From contig JAQUQO010000001.1 of NCBI GenBank assembly GCA_028716045.1, positions 128,942 to 192,941 of the forward strand: a DNA stretch of 64,000 nucleotides, given 5' to 3'. The notes under the pieces are model-generated. The model did no database searches, was not told where the DNA came from, and saw nothing but the letters and a program-made list of their open reading frames with translations. This stretch comes from Patescibacteria group bacterium. Its GTDB lineage: Bacteria > Patescibacteriota > Patescibacteriia > JAQUQO01. Below are positions 7,248 through 59,356 of this stretch, piece by piece. The stretch's first letter is position 1, and each line of letters opens with the position of its first letter. The translations under genes and the position numbers were made by a program.

Positions 7248-7306
7248 TGTTTTTCCTCCTTTTTATGGTTTAAAAGTTAAATTTTATTATTCTAAATTAA
7301 TATAAT

Positions 7307-7335
7307 ATAATACCATATTTTAACAATTTTGTCAA
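7307..7335 (-). promoter_or_regulatory. sigma70 promoter, TTGACA-17-TATTAT. The -35 box and spacer are identical to the promoter at 20079-20107.
   Basis: Minus-strand read: cttgacaaaattgttaaaatatggtattat. It shares the 22-mer atattttaacaattttgtcaag with the locus at 20085. Confidence 0.55.
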
Positions 7336-7363
7336 GTAGAGACGCGATTAATCGCGTCTCTAC
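7336..7363. promoter_or_regulatory. perfect 28-bp palindrome directly abutting the -35 box
   Basis: gtagagacgcgattaatcgcgtctctac is its own reverse complement. It may be a regulator site or an insulator hairpin. Confidence 0.4.
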
Positions 7364-8555: not shown

Positions 8556-9581
8556 ATGAAGGAAAAATTACAAAATCTTAAAGATTCGGCGAACAAAGAA
8601 ATCCTTGGTTGCAGGAATTTGGATTCTTTGCGCGAGCTGGAAATAAAATATCTTGGACGGAAAGGCGAACTCACGCAAGTCCTGCGCGGCTTGGGAGGGT
8701 TATCTATTGAAGAAAAAAAAGAAACAGGGCCTTTGGCTAATGAGGTTAAGATATTTATTACCAAGCTATTGGCGGAAAAAGAGCGGGGGCTTCAAGATGA
8801 AAGTTTTAAGGAGGAGTTGGGGAAAGAAGCCGTGGATATCACGGAACCCGGACGAGGGAGAGAATTTGGGCATTTGCATCCCAACACCACTATTCAATAC
8901 GGTCTGGAAGATTTTTTTAAATCTTTGGGGTTTATGGTTTTAGACGGGCCGGAGTTGGAATCGGATTTCTATAATTTTACCGCTGTCAATATCCCGCCCG
9001 GACATCCGGCGAGAGATATGCAGGATACTTTTTATATCAATGGTCACCCCGATTGGGTAATGAGAACTCATACTTCCCCGGTTCAGGTGCGGGCAATGGA
9101 GAAATACGGCGCGCCCCTGCGGATGATTGTGCCGGGGAAATGCTTTCGCAACGAGAATACTGACGTGCGCCATGAGCACACTTTTTACCAGCTGGAAGGA
9201 GTGATGATAGATAAAAATATAAGCTTTAATCATTTGAAGGGGATGGTGGAGGCAGTGGCAAGATATTTATACGGCGATGACACCAAGGTTCGTTTGCGTC
9301 CGAAATTTTATCCTTTTGTGGAGCCGGGAGTGAACGGCGAAGTGAGTTGTTTCTTGTGCAAAGGCAAGGGTTGCCGTTTATGCAAAAATACCGGCTGGCT
9401 GGAGATTTTTGGCGCCGGCATGATTCACCCCAATGTTTTAAAGGCCGGCAAAATAGATTATAAAAAATATCGGGGATTTGCTTTTGGTTTTGGTTTGACG
9501 CGCCTGGTGATGCTTAAATACGACATTGAAGACGTGCGACTTTTGGAAAGCGGCGATTTAAGATTCTTAAGACAATTTTAA
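8556..9581 (+). CDS. pheS: phenylalanine--tRNA ligase alpha subunit
   Basis: 341 aa. Class II motifs (FRNE, GAGMIHPNVL) and the C-terminal GFAFGFGLTRL. Confidence 0.9.
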   Translation: MKEKLQNLKDSANKEILGCRNLDSLRELEIKYLGRKGELTQVLRGLGGLSIEEKKETGPLANEVKIFITKLLAEKERGLQDESFKEELGKEAVDITEPGRGREFGHLHPNTTIQYGLEDFFKSLGFMVLDGPELESDFYNFTAVNIPPGHPARDMQDTFYINGHPDWVMRTHTSPVQVRAMEKYGAPLRMIVPGKCFRNENTDVRHEHTFYQLEGVMIDKNISFNHLKGMVEAVARYLYGDDTKVRLRPKFYPFVEPGVNGEVSCFLCKGKGCRLCKNTGWLEIFGAGMIHPNVLKAGKIDYKKYRGFAFGFGLTRLVMLKYDIEDVRLLESGDLRFLRQF

Positions 9582-9585
9582 TATT

Positions 9586-12138
9586 ATGAAAATATCATAT
9601 AACTGGCTCAAAGATTTTGTTGCCATCAAGGGTTCTCCCGAAGAAATTGGAAAAAAATTTACCGCCCATACGGTTGAAGTGGAGGGTATAGAAAATTTAC
9701 GCGAGAGTTTTAAAAATATCGTTGTCGGAAAAATTTTAGAAATCAGCAATCATCCCAATGCCGACAAGTTAAAGATTGTTAAAGTAGATATTGGTCAGAA
9801 AGATATTGAACTGGTTTGCGGCGGGACAAATTTAAAATTGGGTCAGCTCGTGGCCGTGGCTTTGCCGGGGGCGAAAGTCCGCTGGCACGGGGAGGGCGAT
9901 TTGGTCGAGCTTCAACCGGCTAAGGTGCGCGGGGTGGAGAGTGCAGGCATGATTTGCGGCGCGAGCGAAATAGGTCTGGAAAAAATTTATCCCCATGACG
10001 ACCATGAGATTTTGGATTTAAGTGATTTGAAATTAAAAATTGGAGAAAATTTAGCAACGGCGCTTGGTTATGACGATGTCATTTATGATATTGATAATAA
10101 ATCATTAACTAATCGTCCGGACCTTTTTGGGCATTATGGGCTGGCTCGCGAAGTGGCGGCTTTTACCGGCGGTCAGTTTAAAGGATACAAAGTTCCGCCA
10201 ATCAAGCCGGGCGGGTCCCTTAATTTAGAAGCCAGGGTTGAAGAGCCAAAACTTTGCCCGCGTTATATGGCCGTCGCGATGGAAAATATAAAAATCGGAC
10301 CTTCTCCGGAATGGTTGAGTAAACGTCTTTCGGCCTGCGGTTTTCGTCCCGTCAACAATATCGTCGATATAACTAATTATGTTCTTTTGGAATTGGGTCA
10401 GCCGATGCACGCGTTTGATACCCGCCGTCTTAATTTAAGATTTAAAAATCAATCCTTCGACAGGCTCAGGATTGACTCTGAGCCTATCAACTCGCTTCGC
10501 TCGCTCGGGGCGAATGCTGAGCCTGTCGAAGCAGAGCAAAGCCGAATGGGTCAAAAGTCAACATCAATCGTAGTTCGTCGGGCCAAAGCCGGGGAGATGT
10601 TTGTCACTTTAGACGGCGCCAGCCGCGGTTTGGATAGCTCCATGCTTGTTATTACTGACGAAGAGCACCCGGTAGCGCTAGCGGGGATTATGGGCGGCGA
10701 AGAGAGCGAAATTAAAGAAGAGACGACATCAATCATTTTTGAGTCAGCTTCTTTTGACGCGGCCAATATCCGCCAAACTTCAAGCAAGCTCGGATTGCGC
10801 ACGGAGTCCTCCATGCGCTTTGAAAAATCATTGGACCCGAATTTAGCGGAAGTCGCTTTGGCGCGCGCTGTGGAGCTTGTCAAAAAATTAATACCCGGAG
10901 CGCGTGAGGCCAGTAAAGTAGCAGATATTAGAAAGTTTAAATTAAATCAAGGGCCGATTAAGACCGATATTGATTTTTTCCAAGAACAAATCGGGGAGAG
11001 TATCAAACCGCCGGTTATCGTTAAAATCTTAAAAGATTTGGGTTTTGGAGTGAAAATTTCCGGTAAAAAATTGTCGGTCAGAATTCCTTCTTGGCGGGCC
11101 GCTAAGGACGTTTCAATACCCGAAGATTTAGTGGAAGAAGTTATACGGATTTATGGTTTTGATAATATCAAAGGAGAAATGCCGTCGGTGATGCTGGAAG
11201 TTCCGGAAGTAAACAAAGAGAGGGAAGGGGAAAGAAAAATAAAGACGATTTTATCTTTGGGAGAAGGGATGGATGAAGTTTATAATTATTCTTTTTTAAG
11301 CGAGAAAGATTTACAAAAAAGCGGATTTTCCTCTGCCTCGGCTATCGGGCTAGCCAACTCTTTATCCGAAGAATTAAATGTTTTGCGTCCAAGTTTAATC
11401 CCGGGATTACTAAAAAATGCGGTGGAGAATTTAAAATATTTTGATCATTTTGGTATTTTTGAGTTCGGCAGAATTTTTGAGCCGCCCGACGGAGAATTTT
11501 TAGTCGGCGGAGAAAACCGAGCATTTTTGCCCCGCGAACCATATCATGTGGCGGGATTAATGGTCGGCGAAGAGAAAGATTTTTTCTTTAAAATTAAAAA
11601 GGTAGTGGAGAATTTATTCTCTGAATTGGGTGTTGCCGCGGAATTCGCTAAAGCGGGGGACATTGCCGTTTTTGCTCATCCGGCGCGTTTCGCTGAAATT
11701 ATAATTAACGGTAAAATTGTCGGGGCGCTCGGCGAGATAAATCCGTTGACGGCCAATAATTTTGACATTAAAAAGAAAATAGCTTTTTTTGAAATTGATC
11801 TATCCTTTGTCCTGGCCGCTGGCCGAGGAAAGAAAAAGTATTCCCCGTTGCTGAAATATCCGGAGATTAAGAGAGATTTAGCCATAGTCGTTAGCGAGAG
11901 TGTGGCGTGGGGAGAAGTGGCCAAGGCCATATTTGACCTTGATAAACACATTATTAAAGATGTGCTATTATTCGACGTATATCGCGGGGAAAATTTAGGC
12001 GCGGGCAAGAAGAGCTTAGCTTTTCATATCGTTTACCGCGCGGACGATCGCACGCTTGAAACCAAAGAAGTTGAGGAAGTCCAAAAACAGATTATCAAAA
12101 AGCTGGAAGAAAAATTCAGCGCGGAAACTAGAAAATAA
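9586..12138 (+). CDS. pheT: phenylalanine--tRNA ligase beta subunit. It carries an in-frame ~40 aa insertion encoded by a GC-rich palindromic element.
   Basis: 850 aa. tRNA-binding N-terminus, B3/4 domain (HAFD...IVVRRAKAGE), B5 and FDX-ACB domains. It immediately follows pheS. Confidence 0.9.
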   Translation: MKISYNWLKDFVAIKGSPEEIGKKFTAHTVEVEGIENLRESFKNIVVGKILEISNHPNADKLKIVKVDIGQKDIELVCGGTNLKLGQLVAVALPGAKVRWHGEGDLVELQPAKVRGVESAGMICGASEIGLEKIYPHDDHEILDLSDLKLKIGENLATALGYDDVIYDIDNKSLTNRPDLFGHYGLAREVAAFTGGQFKGYKVPPIKPGGSLNLEARVEEPKLCPRYMAVAMENIKIGPSPEWLSKRLSACGFRPVNNIVDITNYVLLELGQPMHAFDTRRLNLRFKNQSFDRLRIDSEPINSLRSLGANAEPVEAEQSRMGQKSTSIVVRRAKAGEMFVTLDGASRGLDSSMLVITDEEHPVALAGIMGGEESEIKEETTSIIFESASFDAANIRQTSSKLGLRTESSMRFEKSLDPNLAEVALARAVELVKKLIPGAREASKVADIRKFKLNQGPIKTDIDFFQEQIGESIKPPVIVKILKDLGFGVKISGKKLSVRIPSWRAAKDVSIPEDLVEEVIRIYGFDNIKGEMPSVMLEVPEVNKEREGERKIKTILSLGEGMDEVYNYSFLSEKDLQKSGFSSASAIGLANSLSEELNVLRPSLIPGLLKNAVENLKYFDHFGIFEFGRIFEPPDGEFLVGGENRAFLPREPYHVAGLMVGEEKDFFFKIKKVVENLFSELGVAAEFAKAGDIAVFAHPARFAEIIINGKIVGALGEINPLTANNFDIKKKIAFFEIDLSFVLAAGRGKKKYSPLLKYPEIKRDLAIVVSESVAWGEVAKAIFDLDKHIIKDVLLFDVYRGENLGAGKKSLAFHIVYRADDRTLETKEVEEVQKQIIKKLEEKFSAETRK
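10455..10531. repeat. GC-rich inverted-repeat element lying in-frame inside pheT
   Basis: Perfect 15-bp arms: cttcgacaggctcag at 10455-10469 and ctgagcctgtcgaag at 10517-10531. Local GC is far above the rest of the gene. It falls between the conserved HAFD and IVVRRAKAGE blocks, where homologs have about 5 residues. Confidence 0.5.
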
Positions 12139-20033: not shown

Positions 20034-20078
20034 TTTTACTCCTCCCTTTATTCAATTTTCAATTATATTTAACTAAAA

Positions 20079-20107
20079 ATTATAGCATATTTTAACAATT
20101 TTGTCAA
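20079..20107 (-). promoter_or_regulatory. sigma70 promoter, TTGACA-17-TATAAT (perfect consensus). The -35 box and spacer are identical to the promoter at 7307-7335.
   Basis: Minus-strand read: cttgacaaaattgttaaaatatgctataat. Confidence 0.6.
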
Positions 20108-20133
20108 GACCCGTCAGTCGCGACTGACGGGTC
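20108..20133. promoter_or_regulatory. perfect 26-bp palindrome GACCCGTCAGTCGCGACTGACGGGTC abutting the -35 box. Member of a three-copy family.
   Basis: It is its own reverse complement. The variant at 51730-51755 (gacccgtcggtcgcgaccgacgggtc) differs only at symmetric positions, i.e. compensatory changes. A degenerate copy sits at 52168-52193. Confidence 0.5.
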
Positions 20134-32916: not shown

Positions 32917-33003
32917 ATTTTTCCTCGTGGTGCGAGTGTCCCCTTCGGCAAGCTCAGGGCTAGGCCGAGCGTAGAACTCCCACAATTATTTATAATTTTA
33001 CTT

Positions 33004-35116: not shown

Positions 35117-35211
35117 TTTCTTCTCTCCTTTGTTGTTGGGTTTTTAAGAAACAAGGTTGATGTGTCAGCTTAGCAGATTCGGTAAATTTTGTCAAGACCG
35201 CCTGGACGGGG

Positions 35212-37018: not shown

Positions 37019-37045
37019 AATAATAATTTTATATCCCTCCGAGTT

Positions 37046-37068
37046 GGTTCAATCTTGCAGATTGAACC
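37046..37068. repeat. REP-like hairpin (copy 1): ggttcaatct-tgc-agattgaacc
   Basis: 10-bp stem with a 3-nt loop, directly 3' of the RAYT gene. Near-identical copies at 37605 and 38483. Confidence 0.65.
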
Positions 37069-37073
37069 TTTTC

Positions 37074-37574
37074 TTAATTTCTCTTATCCGCCAATTCCAG
37101 CAAATTTTCCGGATTAGCCGAAGACCAAATCCAATCTTCGGGACGTTTGACGTATTGTTTTCTGACCGGGTTTTGTTCTATATAATTTACTTTCTGCAGA
37201 TAGAATTTTTCGTTTTCAATAAGTTCCGGCCAATTTTTCGGTTGCCAGAATTGATAAGTATCATTTTCTTTAAAAAGTTCAAGGACGCGAGGCTCGGTTT
37301 CTGATAGATTCTTCTTTAATTCTTTTGAAGTAAAAGTTTTAAAATCTCTTGTAAAACCCGCAAGATCACTATTCTCAGCTATAAGATGGATGTGATTAAG
37401 CATGAAGACCCAGGCGTATATTTTTAAACTTTTATTATTCTGGCAGTATTGCAGAGAATTAAGCAGGATATTCCAGCGGTCATATCTGTCAAAAAGGTAG
37501 TACCAACGTTTAACTGTAAAAGTTAGAAAATGTATTTTGTTTTTTAATTCTTTGCTGATGCGAGGCGATGGCAT
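37074..37574 (-). mobile_element. REP-associated tyrosine transposase (RAYT / IS200-IS605 TnpA-like HUH endonuclease)
   Basis: 166 aa. HUH motif in FMLNHIHLIAE. Conserved C-terminal Tyr region. Flanked on both sides by REP hairpins. Confidence 0.7.
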
Positions 37575-37604
37575 TTTAGAAAGTTAAAATGAAAAGAAAG
37601 TTAT

Positions 37605-37678
37605 GGTTCAATCTGTAAGATTGAACCAACGGAAGGCTCTGCAAGAGCCGTAACTAGATATACGCTGTTATGTGCTGT
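37605..37678. repeat. REP copy 2 (ggttcaatct-gta-agattgaacc) followed by a second hairpin module, ggctctgcaagagcc-gtaacYagatatacgcYgttat
   Basis: The module at 37633-37678 recurs at 54995-55040 with about 90% identity. Confidence 0.6.
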
Positions 37679-37735
37679 AGTGAAAAGCAATAGCCGTCCC
37701 GAAGGGCGGCTATTATATTTTTGGTAATTTACTTT

Positions 37736-38482: not shown

Positions 38483-38505
38483 GGTTCAATCTTGCAGATT
38501 AAACC
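38483..38505. repeat. REP copy 3: ggttcaatct-tgc-agattaaacc
   Basis: Same orientation and flank (ttt(c/t)c) as copy 1. Lies 8 nt from the gyrB stop. Confidence 0.6.
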
Positions 38506-38513
38506 TTTCCATT

Positions 38514-48299: not shown

Positions 48300-48412
48300 G
48301 GTTCTAATTCTCCCTGTGGTTTTTTATGGTTTTTAAAACAATTCCTTTATGTTATTTCAAAAAACAAACTTCTCCATAGCTTATCGTATTATCACTATTT
48401 TGTCAAGAGATA

Positions 48413-50733: not shown

Positions 50734-50751
50734 AAATAAAATATTTTTTTA

Positions 50752-50878
50752 GGGGGTTGGTCTTAAATCCCTCCCCCCTCCGGGGTACTCCCTTTGAGAA
50801 AGGGAGATAGAATGTCCTCCTCCTTTGTAAAAGGAGGTGCCCTGTCCTGAGCTTGTCGAAGGGGCGGGGTGGAGGATT
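50752..50878. repeat. ~130-bp modular GC-hairpin repeat, copy E (direct orientation), upstream flank of the DUF559 gene
   Basis: ttggtcttaaatccct...tttgagaaagggagata...cctcctttgtaaaaggagg...gtcgaaggggcggggtggaggatt. Shares its ends and 3' module with the copy at 59190-59326 (inverted), and its 5' end with the copy at 51237-51325. Confidence 0.65.
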
Positions 50879-51235
50879 TTAGCCCTCTTCTGTTTCCCGC
50901 ATTATTTTTCCAATCACACCCTCCATATTGTAAAAAATATCCAAGTTAGTAAATCGCAGAATTTTTAAGCCGGACTGTTTTAGATATTTTTCTCTCTCGG
51001 CATCTTTGATGATATTATCTTTGTCAAAATGTTGTCCCCCGTCAATTTCTATAATCAGTTTCTTTGTCGGGCAGTAAAAATCCACGATGTATTTTCCAAG
51101 GGGCTTTTGTCTGTAAAATTGTAAACCGTTTATTTGTTTATTTTTGATTTTACTCCACAAAATTATTTCCGTTTTAGTCATGTTGCCTCGCAGGGCCTTA
51201 GATGCGTTTTTAAGTTTAGGGCTATAATAGCGCAT
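50879..51235 (-). CDS. DUF559 / Vsr-like endonuclease-domain protein
   Basis: 118 aa. Conserved DUF559 core (LRGNMTKTEIILWSKIKNKQINGLQFYRQKPLGKYIVDFYCP...IEIDGGQH). Confidence 0.7.
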   Translation of the reverse strand: MRYYSPKLKNASKALRGNMTKTEIILWSKIKNKQINGLQFYRQKPLGKYIVDFYCPTKKLIIEIDGGQHFDKDNIIKDAEREKYLKQSGLKILRFTNLDIFYNMEGVIGKIMRETEEG

Positions 51236-51729: not shown

Positions 51730-51755
51730 GCAAGACCCGTCGGTCGCGACCGACG
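51730..51755. promoter_or_regulatory. perfect 26-bp palindrome GACCCGTCGGTCGCGACCGACGGGTC (family copy 2), in the rpmE upstream region
   Basis: It is its own reverse complement. It sits between an rpmE-proximal ttgcca -35 box and a plus-strand TTGACC. Confidence 0.45.
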
Positions 51756-51840
51756 GGTCAGGGGCTTGACCTTTAATTAAATACATGTTAAGGTTAAAAG
51801 CGATGAGGATTTTACTTGTAGTACATTTCAAAATTTTAAA

Positions 51841-52113: not shown

Positions 52114-52207
52114 CTAACCATATTTAAGCCGAAAGACAATTATGTCAAGTAGGCTTTTTTTGTCAAGACAAGCCAGTCGCGACCGACGGGTCTTGACAAG
52201 CCGAGGG

Positions 52208-54971: not shown

Positions 54972-55040
54972 CCCCGCTAAGCGGGGTATGGGTGGAGGCT
55001 CTGCAAGAGCCGTAACCAGATATACGCCGTTATATGATGT
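54972..55040. repeat. hairpin ccccgctaagcgggg plus the second copy of the ggctctgcaagagcc-gtaaccagatatacgccgttat module
   Basis: 54995-55040 matches 37633-37678. The ccccgc..gcgggg hairpin matches 49418-49433. Confidence 0.55.
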
Positions 55041-55070
55041 ATGTTTTTCTTTTTCGGCCCGTTAGGGTTT

Positions 55071-56999: not shown

Positions 57000-57055
57000 A
57001 TTGTATATTATTGCTAAAATTTTGTCAAGTGTCCGCAATATATTTAGCAATAATA
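57000..57055 (-). promoter_or_regulatory. sigma70 promoter (TTGACA-17-TACAAT) overlapped by a perfect 13-bp inverted-repeat operator
   Basis: Minus-strand read: TTGACA (plus 57023-57028), 17 nt, TACAAT (plus 57000-57005). IR arms tattattgctaaa (57006-57018) and tttagcaataata (57043-57055). One arm lies in the -35/-10 spacer, a classic autorepressor layout. Confidence 0.6.
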
Positions 57056-59173: not shown

Positions 59174-59189
59174 AAAAGCATAAAGGTTT

Positions 59190-59326
59190 AAAATCCTCCG
59201 CCCCGCCCCTTCGACAAGCTTAGGACAGGGCACCTCCTTTTACAAAGGAGGAGGACATTCTTATCTCCCTTTCTCAAAAGCCTGCCTGCCGGCAGGCAGG
59301 GGAGGTAAAGAGGGATTTAAGACCAA
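59190..59326. repeat. modular ~135-bp repeat, copy F, inverted relative to the copies flanking the DUF559 gene
   Basis: Its reverse complement matches copy E (50752-50878) along ttggtcttaaatccct and ttgagaaagggagataagaatgtcctcctcctttgtaaaaggaggtgccctgtcct-agcttgtcgaaggggcgggg-ggaggatt. Its central module is cccctgcctgccggcaggcagg, as in copy G. Confidence 0.65.
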
Positions 59327-59356
59327 TTTCTCACTCCTAAATTAAAATTTATTTTT

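Follow-up and report, generated by a model that had tools for sequence, protein, structure and literature searches.

An in-frame palindromic repeat with a nested second copy in the pheT gene of a Patescibacteria bacterium

Palindromic repeats that lie in frame within coding sequences have so far been treated as peculiar to Rickettsia and a few other bacteria. The Rickettsia palindromic elements (RPE) RPE-1 to RPE-8 were reportedly described by Ogata et al. in 2000 and 2002 and by Claverie and Ogata in 2003, and the original description of the CcrM-associated CIR repeats of Caulobacter is said to be that of Chen and Shapiro in 2003. According to PMC2229807, RPEs are palindromes of 105-146 bp present in frame within 19 protein genes, and an RPE-containing guanylate kinase was translated and active. 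The same review gives CIR as repeats of about 110 bp with two hairpin arms and a linker, conserved between alphaproteobacterial species, defined by GANTC in the terminal loop and never intragenic (PMC2229807). REP, BIME and REPIN sequences are small imperfect palindromes, often arranged as inverted doublets, that go with RAYT transposases (PMC2817692, PMC3733652); REP superfamilies are mostly extragenic, although both are listed with "intragenic units +" (PMC3733652). Intragenic MITEs (transposable elements of the miniature inverted-repeat type) include the 107-bp form of Correia/NEMIS, ERIC/RU-1, RU-3 and the Coxiella MITEs (PMC2229807, PMC2759123, PMC5896051). Here we describe an element in pheT, the gene for the phenylalanyl-tRNA synthetase (PheRS) beta subunit, of an ultra-small bacterium of the Patescibacteria group. 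The gene lies on a 64 kb stretch of contig JAQUQO010000001.1 that was analysed as a whole and is called the window below. Our verdict is that the element is a protein-coding palindromic repeat of a new family, in a phylum new for such repeats; a literature search that combined RPE with Patescibacteria returned no relevant report.

The gene and the part of it under study are as follows.
9586..12138, plus strand: pheT, phenylalanyl-tRNA synthetase beta subunit, 850 aa, reading frame intact (open reading frame, ORF).
10435..10557, plus strand: the protein-level insert, 41 codons, residues 284-324 (NLRFKNQSFDRLRIDSEPINSLRSLGANAEPVEAEQSRMGQ), placed by MAFFT alignment, the gap in a PDB phmmer match and the AlphaFold2 confidence score (pLDDT).

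Window PheT contained five Pfam domains (tRNA_bind, B3_4, B5, tRNA_synthFbeta and FDX-ACB), and solved bacterial PheRS beta chains matched its AlphaFold2 model over the full length (E ~1e-80). The first-pass annotation of the DNA had reported about 40 extra residues between HAFD and IVVRRAKAGE, and this was borne out by alignment with the 120 best PheT homologues (BLASTP; ~810 aa, 43-57% identical). Residues 284-324, which lie between HAFDxxxL and xIVVRxAK, were absent from all 120. The spacing between the two motifs was 3-12 residues in the orthologues and 41 residues more in window PheT. The named hosts of the orthologues were Magasanikbacteria, Falkowbacteria, Buchananbacteria, other Patescibacteria and one labelled Candidatus Udaeobacter. 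The Pfam B3_4 match was stretched to 212 residues for 171 profile positions, and residues 274 and 275 of the solved Staphylococcus haemolyticus PheRS (2rhq_B) were adjacent across the insert gap (PDB phmmer). The host loop varies in length among the orthologues, and the insert starts about eight residues past the conserved HAFD motif of the B3/4 domain. That domain is the location of the PheRS editing site, and the HAFD histidine is presumably an editing-site residue. The source PheT (P0128) is present in a collection of 15 billion proteins, where the representative of its 90% cluster is a 34-aa fragment (P0129), which is why the homology search found nothing closer than 57% identity.

The earlier proposal of a loop insertion agreed with the AlphaFold2 model, which was built from a 77-sequence alignment and had a mean pLDDT of 87.9. 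The sole segment below 50 was residues 288-321, with flanks at 94-97, and the insert was without secondary structure. The insert is predicted to form a disordered loop, with the rest of the PheRS fold intact.

The DNA that encodes the insert contains a perfect 15-bp inverted repeat (CTTCGACAGGCTCAG at 10455-10469 and CTGAGCCTGTCGAAG at 10517-10531). Its exact complementarity had been noted in the first pass and held up. The longest perfect inverted repeat in 300 pheT codon shuffles was 13 bp. At a complementarity of 83%, each arm reaches a length of 29 nt. RNA folding of 10440-10560 gave -47.5 kcal/mol (z = -3.8), and none of 200 shuffles was as stable. Two other early statements needed correction. 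The GC content, described as strikingly higher than in the rest of the gene, had been overstated, with 58% in the inverted-repeat span, 47% in the whole insert and 44% in pheT; 5.8% of 77-nt windows of the gene equalled or exceeded the span, up to a maximum of 69%. The limits given for the element, 10455-10531, were too narrow, since it runs from about 10443 to 10560, within an insert of about 10435-10560, and has A/T-rich flanks at 10445-10454 and 10560-10569. Rfam searches of the whole window at gathering thresholds, and of the insert at E values up to 10, returned only tRNA and chance miRNA-level matches.

The DNA belongs to a multi-copy repeat family. A metagenome search with an exact 23-mer, covering the left unit and stem (CCTTCGACARGCTCAGGATTGAC), yielded 98 loci, about one-third of which showed one clear family consensus, with at least 33 distinct copies. 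The contigs with family copies were mostly of 33-47% GC, a few up to 54%, and several came from groundwater; most copies were intergenic. The consensus consists of N3TCAA heptamers-TCAATCC, TTCGACAAGCTCA, GGATTGACCC, TGAGCRAAGYCGAAY and GGGTCAA-heptamers, in that order, with a core from CAATCC to GGGTCAA of 51 nt or 17 codons. It comprises two adjacent hairpin units, TCAATCC-TTCGACARGCTCA-GGATTGA and TTGACCC-TGAGCRAAGYCGAAY-GGGTCAA, and can fold into two hairpins side by side or into a single long hairpin of 15 pairs. Among 34 copies, the heptamer after the 3' TCAA equalled the heptamer before the 5' TCAA with a mean identity of 0.62 in phase, compared with 0.17-0.37 out of heptamer phase. This agreement may stem from target duplication or from a target preference, or the heptamers may belong to the element. 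Long variants with nested hairpin modules were present at four loci (L147, L184, L194 and L169). The family 23-mer had no match in IMG/VR viral contigs, and an exact 27-mer from the nested part of the pheT insert had none in metagenomes.

Two further observations concern the family loci. One locus (L174:281-469) contains three tandem copies with a 69-nt period (the 51-nt core plus heptamer spacers), and the array is open in one frame with a repeated ...NLKTQSFDKLRIDPERSRTGQ... peptide. In several related metagenome contigs (L131, L192, L207 and L212) a copy adjoins prfB, encoding RF2, the only neighbour gene common to at least three family loci.

The architecture of the pheT copy was examined with R1, a sequence-only model made from 22 metagenome copies with the window excluded. 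The parts of the copy are listed here.
10443..10485, plus strand: 5' part of the outer copy (R1 positions 2-44; cmsearch, 46.7 bits, E = 1.3e-13).
10449..10475, plus strand: hairpin of the outer copy, a 7-bp TCAATCC / GGATTGA stem with a 13-nt loop, TTCGACAGGCTCA, at 10456-10468 (from the sequence).
10484..10537, minus strand: nested diverged copy, inverted, 54 nt or 18 codons (window compared with short-form copies).
10533..10560, plus strand: 3' part of the outer copy (R1 positions 38-65; 17.1 bits, E = 2.3e-4).
10445..10454, plus strand: 5' flanking direct repeat AAAATCAATC (repeat search), which corresponds to the N3TCAA heptamer flank of the family.
10560..10569, plus strand: 3' flanking direct repeat AACATCAATC (repeat search and flank analysis).

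The stem and loop of the outer copy also occur in the family alignment A2, and its 3' part ends in GGGTCAA (10548-10554). The R1 match to the nested copy covers 10499-10531 on the minus strand (model positions 14-48, E = 1e-4), and this copy is bounded by CTGAGC (10478-10483) and CAGAGC (10532-10537). Because the R1 pieces are collinear on both sides and inverted in the middle, the pheT insert is an outer copy interrupted at CTGAGC by a copy in the opposite orientation. The right arm of the 15-bp inverted repeat (10517-10531) lies inside the nested copy, and the repeat is the pairing of the forward unit of the outer copy with that of the nested one. The first-pass picture of a palindromic element was right, but it missed that the inverted repeat is made by two nested copies of opposite orientation. 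The 10-nt direct repeat at 10445 and 10560 was considered as a plain target-site duplication and rejected, because the distance between its two parts, 115 nt, cannot be divided by three; it was reinterpreted as part of the heptamer flanks of the family.

Members of the family also lie in frame within other genes. Eight forward copies of the 33 were flanked on each side by an open frame of 50 codons or more, and a copy in leucyl-tRNA synthetase (LeuRS; L168) made a ninth (the others at L132, L138, L147, L166, L169, L170, L180 and L191). Pfam confirmed seven hosts: UvrB, a GT4 glycosyltransferase, GatB, a pyridine-nucleotide-disulphide oxidoreductase (TrxB-like), LeuRS, a Mur ligase and an ornithine/aspartate carbamoyltransferase (OTCase). 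As in PheT, the domain matches of the host genes were stretched by the insert. The copy lies inside the catalytic domain in GatB, in the anticodon-binding domain in LeuRS and between the two domains in the carbamoyltransferase, and the N-terminal domain of the Mur ligase was stretched from 95 to 133 residues. The insert peptide of GatB (LNLKIQSFDKLRID...SRMGQNSKLKI) may be compared with that of window PheT (LNLRFKNQSFDRLRID...SRMGQKSTS). Of the forward frames of the element, two are open (QSFDKLRIDPEQSRTGQ and NPSTSSGLTLSEAERVK) and the third has a TGA; in reverse, a single frame is open (LTRSTLLRVNPELVEGL). The eight forward copies tested within genes, like the window copy, were without exception in the two stop-free phases, and no gene split by a copy in the TGA phase was found among the tested copies, even with element stops masked. 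The chance of nine out of nine copies in open phases is (2/3)^9 or ~0.03, which is modest statistical support. The restriction of intragenic copies to open phases argues for translation of the inserts rather than their removal, and peptides such as FKNQSFDR and SLGANAEPVEAEQSR would be expected if the PheT insert is translated. With absence from the orthologues, a multi-copy family and seven other Pfam-confirmed genes, the early comparison to in-frame, RPE-like insertion of palindromic repeats was supported.

The same loop has received additional sequence in other PheTs. Two other Patescibacteria PheTs (P0042 and P0050) contain large, different inserts in exactly the same B3/4 loop.
L121:871-1005: insert of P0042 (NCBI GCA_900174565.1), GLGNPPPTPPLEKGEGPSS..., encoded by a CTCCCCCTTTGGAAAAGGGGGAG hairpin.
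L122:3817-3981: insert of P0050, ...PNNKFQITNP...SQIPNLKFQ..., with A/T-rich short repeats around a CCCCG...CGGGG hairpin.

Neither insert matched R1, and both were rejected as members of the family and are different repeats; the P0042 hairpin resembles GC-rich intergenic hairpins of the window. The B3/4 loop of PheT is a hot spot, with three independent colonisations by different repeats. Repeat-like peptides were also seen in other loops of PheT, after query residue 206 in P0119, 491 in P0093 and 152 in P0118.

Compared with the described systems, the element has most in common with the RPEs. Both are short palindromic repeats that form a long hairpin and occur between genes as well as in frame in conserved genes that are kept intact, both lack a known associated transposase, and both have small-genome bacterial hosts. 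The window family differs from RPEs in its shorter core (51 nt compared with 105-146 bp), in a unit loop conserved beyond one genus, in heptamer-repeat flanks and in the nesting observed in pheT. Assignment to an RPE-like functional class is supported by the hairpin, the multiple copies, the in-frame position in several genes and the predicted loop, a likeness of function. The element is set apart from RPE proper by its host phylum, Patescibacteria rather than the Rickettsia or Wolbachia hosts of RPEs. Like REPs, the family forms palindromic doublets that fold separately or as one long hairpin. However, its consensus lacks a terminal GTAG or CGTC tag, and whereas REPs have a conserved stem and a short loop, the unit has a conserved 13-nt loop and a variable stem. 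What is conserved is the loop and not a tagged stem, which places the family outside the REP definition, and no RAYT-like gene was seen near the 33 family copies in a clustering of their neighbour proteins. MITEs are likewise small non-autonomous repeats with ORFs fused in frame to host genes, and their transcripts form long stem-loops. Known MITEs are delimited by defined terminal inverted repeats and carry TA target duplications tied to insertion sequence families, whereas the window family ends in TCAA-containing direct repeats or in arrays of heptamers. Its two units, forward and reverse, could act as imperfect terminal inverted repeats, and the flanks share TCAA and in-phase heptamers, but no parent insertion sequence was found among the neighbours of the 33 loci. 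The two-arm and linker layout described for CIR is shared by Caulobacter doublets of the TTCGACARGCTCA unit, but no GANTC was seen in the listed Caulobacter doublets.

The hairpin unit itself is not confined to the family. The pattern TTCGACARGCTCAG-N20-50-CTGAGCYTGTCGAA occurred at a minimum of 120 loci (L001-L120) in species-representative genomes. Units were present in Alpha-, Beta- and Gammaproteobacteria, Bacteroidota, Actinobacteria, Chloroflexota, Acidobacteriota, Nitrospirota, Cyanobacteria and Patescibacteria. The matches listed include isolates of Caulobacter, Novosphingobium, Variovorax, Thalassotalea, Chryseobacterium, Plantibacter and Rathayibacter, together with metagenome-assembled genomes (MAGs) of Acidobacteriota, Chloroflexota, Nitrospirota, Cyanobacteria and others. 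The unit recurs mostly as inverted doublets or arrays (e.g., L030:2684-2753, L012:4831-4900, L057:3335-3403 and L050:4058-4119) and consists of the 13-nt loop with a closing C-G and a covarying stem; YGA(G/A/C)(G/C)GG often comes next. Among 396 unique units, complementary bases flanking the 13-nt core changed in concert. In 129 units, 65% of stem cells paired, compared with 31-38% when the partner was slid, and the stem covariation score was 0.428 compared with 0.192 in shuffles (none of 500 reached 0.428) and 0.09-0.14 when slid. The search pattern fixed the 13-nt core, so that conservation of the core is partly by construction, whereas the stem covariation is not. Attempts to infer the strand from G-T and A-C mismatches in the stem gave mixed counts without consistent strand bias. 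Sixteen unit loci from other phyla matched no Rfam family, and a literature search on the core DNA words and peptide words found no paper on the unit. Translations of the unit (FDKLR, LRQAQ, PSTSSG, PELVEG and LSLSKG) resemble common "junk" peptides of predicted proteomes. The unit may be the recognition structure of a widespread machinery, for example HUH-type single-stranded DNA mobilisation or a conserved host factor, and the Patescibacteria element a lineage of a pan-bacterial superfamily specialised for coding sequences; we put this forward tentatively and consider it doubtful. The cross-phylum unit is nevertheless the part that could prove new.

Misassembly had to be considered because the sequence comes from a MAG and repeats are well-known sites of misassembly, at which a metagenome assembler might wrongly join a repeat into pheT. 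This source of the insert is ruled out by identical independent assemblies, and of all the explanations weighed here we gave it the least credence. The pheT DNA with its insert is 100% identical in the MAG contig JAQTRY010000001.1 (GCA_028711565.1, 812 kb), which overlaps the window by 22 kb with zero mismatches, and in two Logan assemblies from separate runs (SRR22315506 and SRR22315508). The identical insert-bearing protein is recorded in a second NCBI MAG, with exact matches under MDD5043503.1 and MDD5490286.1 ("Patescibacteria group bacterium"). In addition, the reading frame is kept, both insert flanks are collinear with orthologues, and the same repeat family is found inside other genes in independent assemblies. 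Removal of the segment before mature PheRS is formed, by a small intron, an intein-like element or translational bypass, is highly improbable. The strong terminal pairing could in principle bring the insert ends together, but inteins are far larger than 41 aa, and 123 nt falls well short of the length of group I and II introns. No Rfam intron or ribozyme matched, and the insert keeps the reading frame and contains no stop. Confinement to open phases, as seen in the nine copies, is not expected of a spliced element, and an intein or self-splicing intron was rejected on these grounds.

Two explanations would give the insert a role, and we regard both as unlikely. If the insert had been co-opted, a loop near HAFD would give PheRS a new property (editing, tRNA handling or a partner) and would be kept by selection. 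The closeness to HAFD fits this, as do the large inserts carried in this loop by at least two further Patescibacteria lineages and an age of the copy sufficient for it to have taken in a second, now diverged copy. However, the three loop inserts are unrelated sequences from different repeat families, which speaks for a site that is permissive and against a common function; disorder is predicted for the insert, and the same peptide occurs at unrelated positions of unrelated enzymes. The element may instead act as RNA or DNA, with a hairpin that modulates pheST mRNA stability or translation or binds a host factor, and the peptide would then be a by-product. The very stable fold and the intergenic position of most family copies are consistent with such a role, as is the stem that covaries around a conserved 13-nt loop across many phyla, which implies that the hairpin is read by something. 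However, no observation links it with the regulation of pheST, and the orthologues manage without it; no Rfam family matched, the mismatch counts in the stem favoured neither strand consistently, and the confinement of intragenic copies to stop-free phases is a constraint at the level of translation.

The insert is probably selfish repeat DNA that colonised a coding sequence, a reading that brings together its absence from orthologues, family membership, nesting, the copies that lie in frame within other genes, a loop predicted to be disordered and the reproducible assembly. A small non-autonomous palindromic repeat would have inserted in the DNA for a short, length-variable loop of the PheT B3/4 domain, and a second copy, now diverged, would later have inserted into the first in the opposite orientation, which would have created the perfect 15-bp inverted repeat. 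The gene stays open because the addition is a multiple of three and the element is free of stops in two of three forward frames. The insert would then be translated as a disordered loop of about 41 residues, with the PheRS fold intact, and by our analysis it is probably tolerated and near-neutral for PheRS rather than functional, for which the active guanylate kinase with its RPE offers a precedent.

Several points weigh against selfish repeat DNA as the explanation. Translation of the insert is deduced from its open frame. Clustering of 192 kb around the 33 family loci revealed no recurrent neighbour protein or transposase, and for this reason past or present mobility of the element is presumed from its distribution and nesting only. 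The family copies outside the window are known from taxonomically unassigned metagenome contigs, and within its 64 kb the window contains a single composite copy, with isolated unit cores at just two or three further sites. Searches at the protein level that used the insert, including 1.84 billion representatives, gave no match, and a profile of the family peptide found only two tiny ORFs, although such searches are blind to short repeat-derived peptides and their blanks are no evidence of absence. The closest orthologue is 57-60% identical, so that the comparison lacks an empty site at the DNA level and does not fix the exact insertion boundaries or a target duplication.

The isolated unit cores of the window are given below.
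50845..50862, minus strand: isolated unit core CTTCGACAAGCTCAG in an intergenic GC-rich composite repeat upstream of prfA (R1 E = 7e-4).
59208..59225, plus strand: isolated unit core in the inverted twin of the composite repeat, between tsf and a PSP1-domain gene.
32942..32958, plus strand: weak unit-like match CTTCGGCAAGCTCAG with two mismatches (R1 E = 0.07).

The match at 32942-32958 was too weak to be accepted as a family copy, and its membership is doubtful. It lies 27 nt upstream of the rplA start (minus strand, 32916) and may represent a degenerate repeat or belong to an L1 leader structure. The composite repeat is present as two copies of opposite orientation (50750-50886 and 59184-59330; 78 nt, 95% complementary), one upstream of prfA and the other between tsf and the PSP1-domain gene, and combines several small hairpins (CCTCCTTTGTAAAAGGAGG, CCCTTTGAGAAAGGG and others) with one TTCGACAAGCTCA unit. 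GC-rich intergenic hairpin families occur at 3122-3159/60771-60808, 40745-40806/42417-42478 and 58248-58327/63132-63204 (e.g., CTCCCCCTTAG..AAGGGGGAG), all outside long ORFs and of the same type as the hairpin in the P0042 PheT. The pheT gene itself is arranged head to tail with pheS (8556-9581), and the neighbours of the pair are a site-2 protease gene and dnaE.

Other repeats were seen in the window. A repeated motif of 30-40 nt on the minus strand (7297-7336, 20069-20108, 35171-35199, 48378-48407 and 57000-57029) is a consensus sigma-70 promoter, and the promoter at 20107-20079 reads TTGACA-17-TATAAT with an extended TG and 12 of 12 matches. The palindrome GACCCGTCRGTCGCGACYGACGGGTC abuts a -35 box or TTGACAA at 20108-20133, 51734-51759 and 52167-52192. 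Three copies of a GGTTCAATCTTGCAGATTGAACC hairpin lie within 1.5 kb (37043-37080, 37593-37630 and 38483-38508), and a 46-nt direct repeat, 91% identical, recurs 17 kb apart (37634-37679 and 54996-55041).

The pheT element places protein-coding palindromes in a second, distant lineage with reduced genomes, the Patescibacteria, and bears on the persistence of selfish DNA in streamlined genomes and on the origin of new protein loops. Its family occupies at least eight housekeeping enzymes, and a single loop of PheT has received three different repeat families independently. Repeat inserts of this kind inflate and distort protein families and yield spurious ORFs, and they can hide proteins from clustering-based searches, as happened with the source PheT. 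A pan-bacterial superfamily, if true, would explain the ubiquitous FDKLR / PELVEG / LSLSKG peptides of predicted proteomes, and the conservation of the loop across phyla may point to an undescribed mobilisation or binding system.

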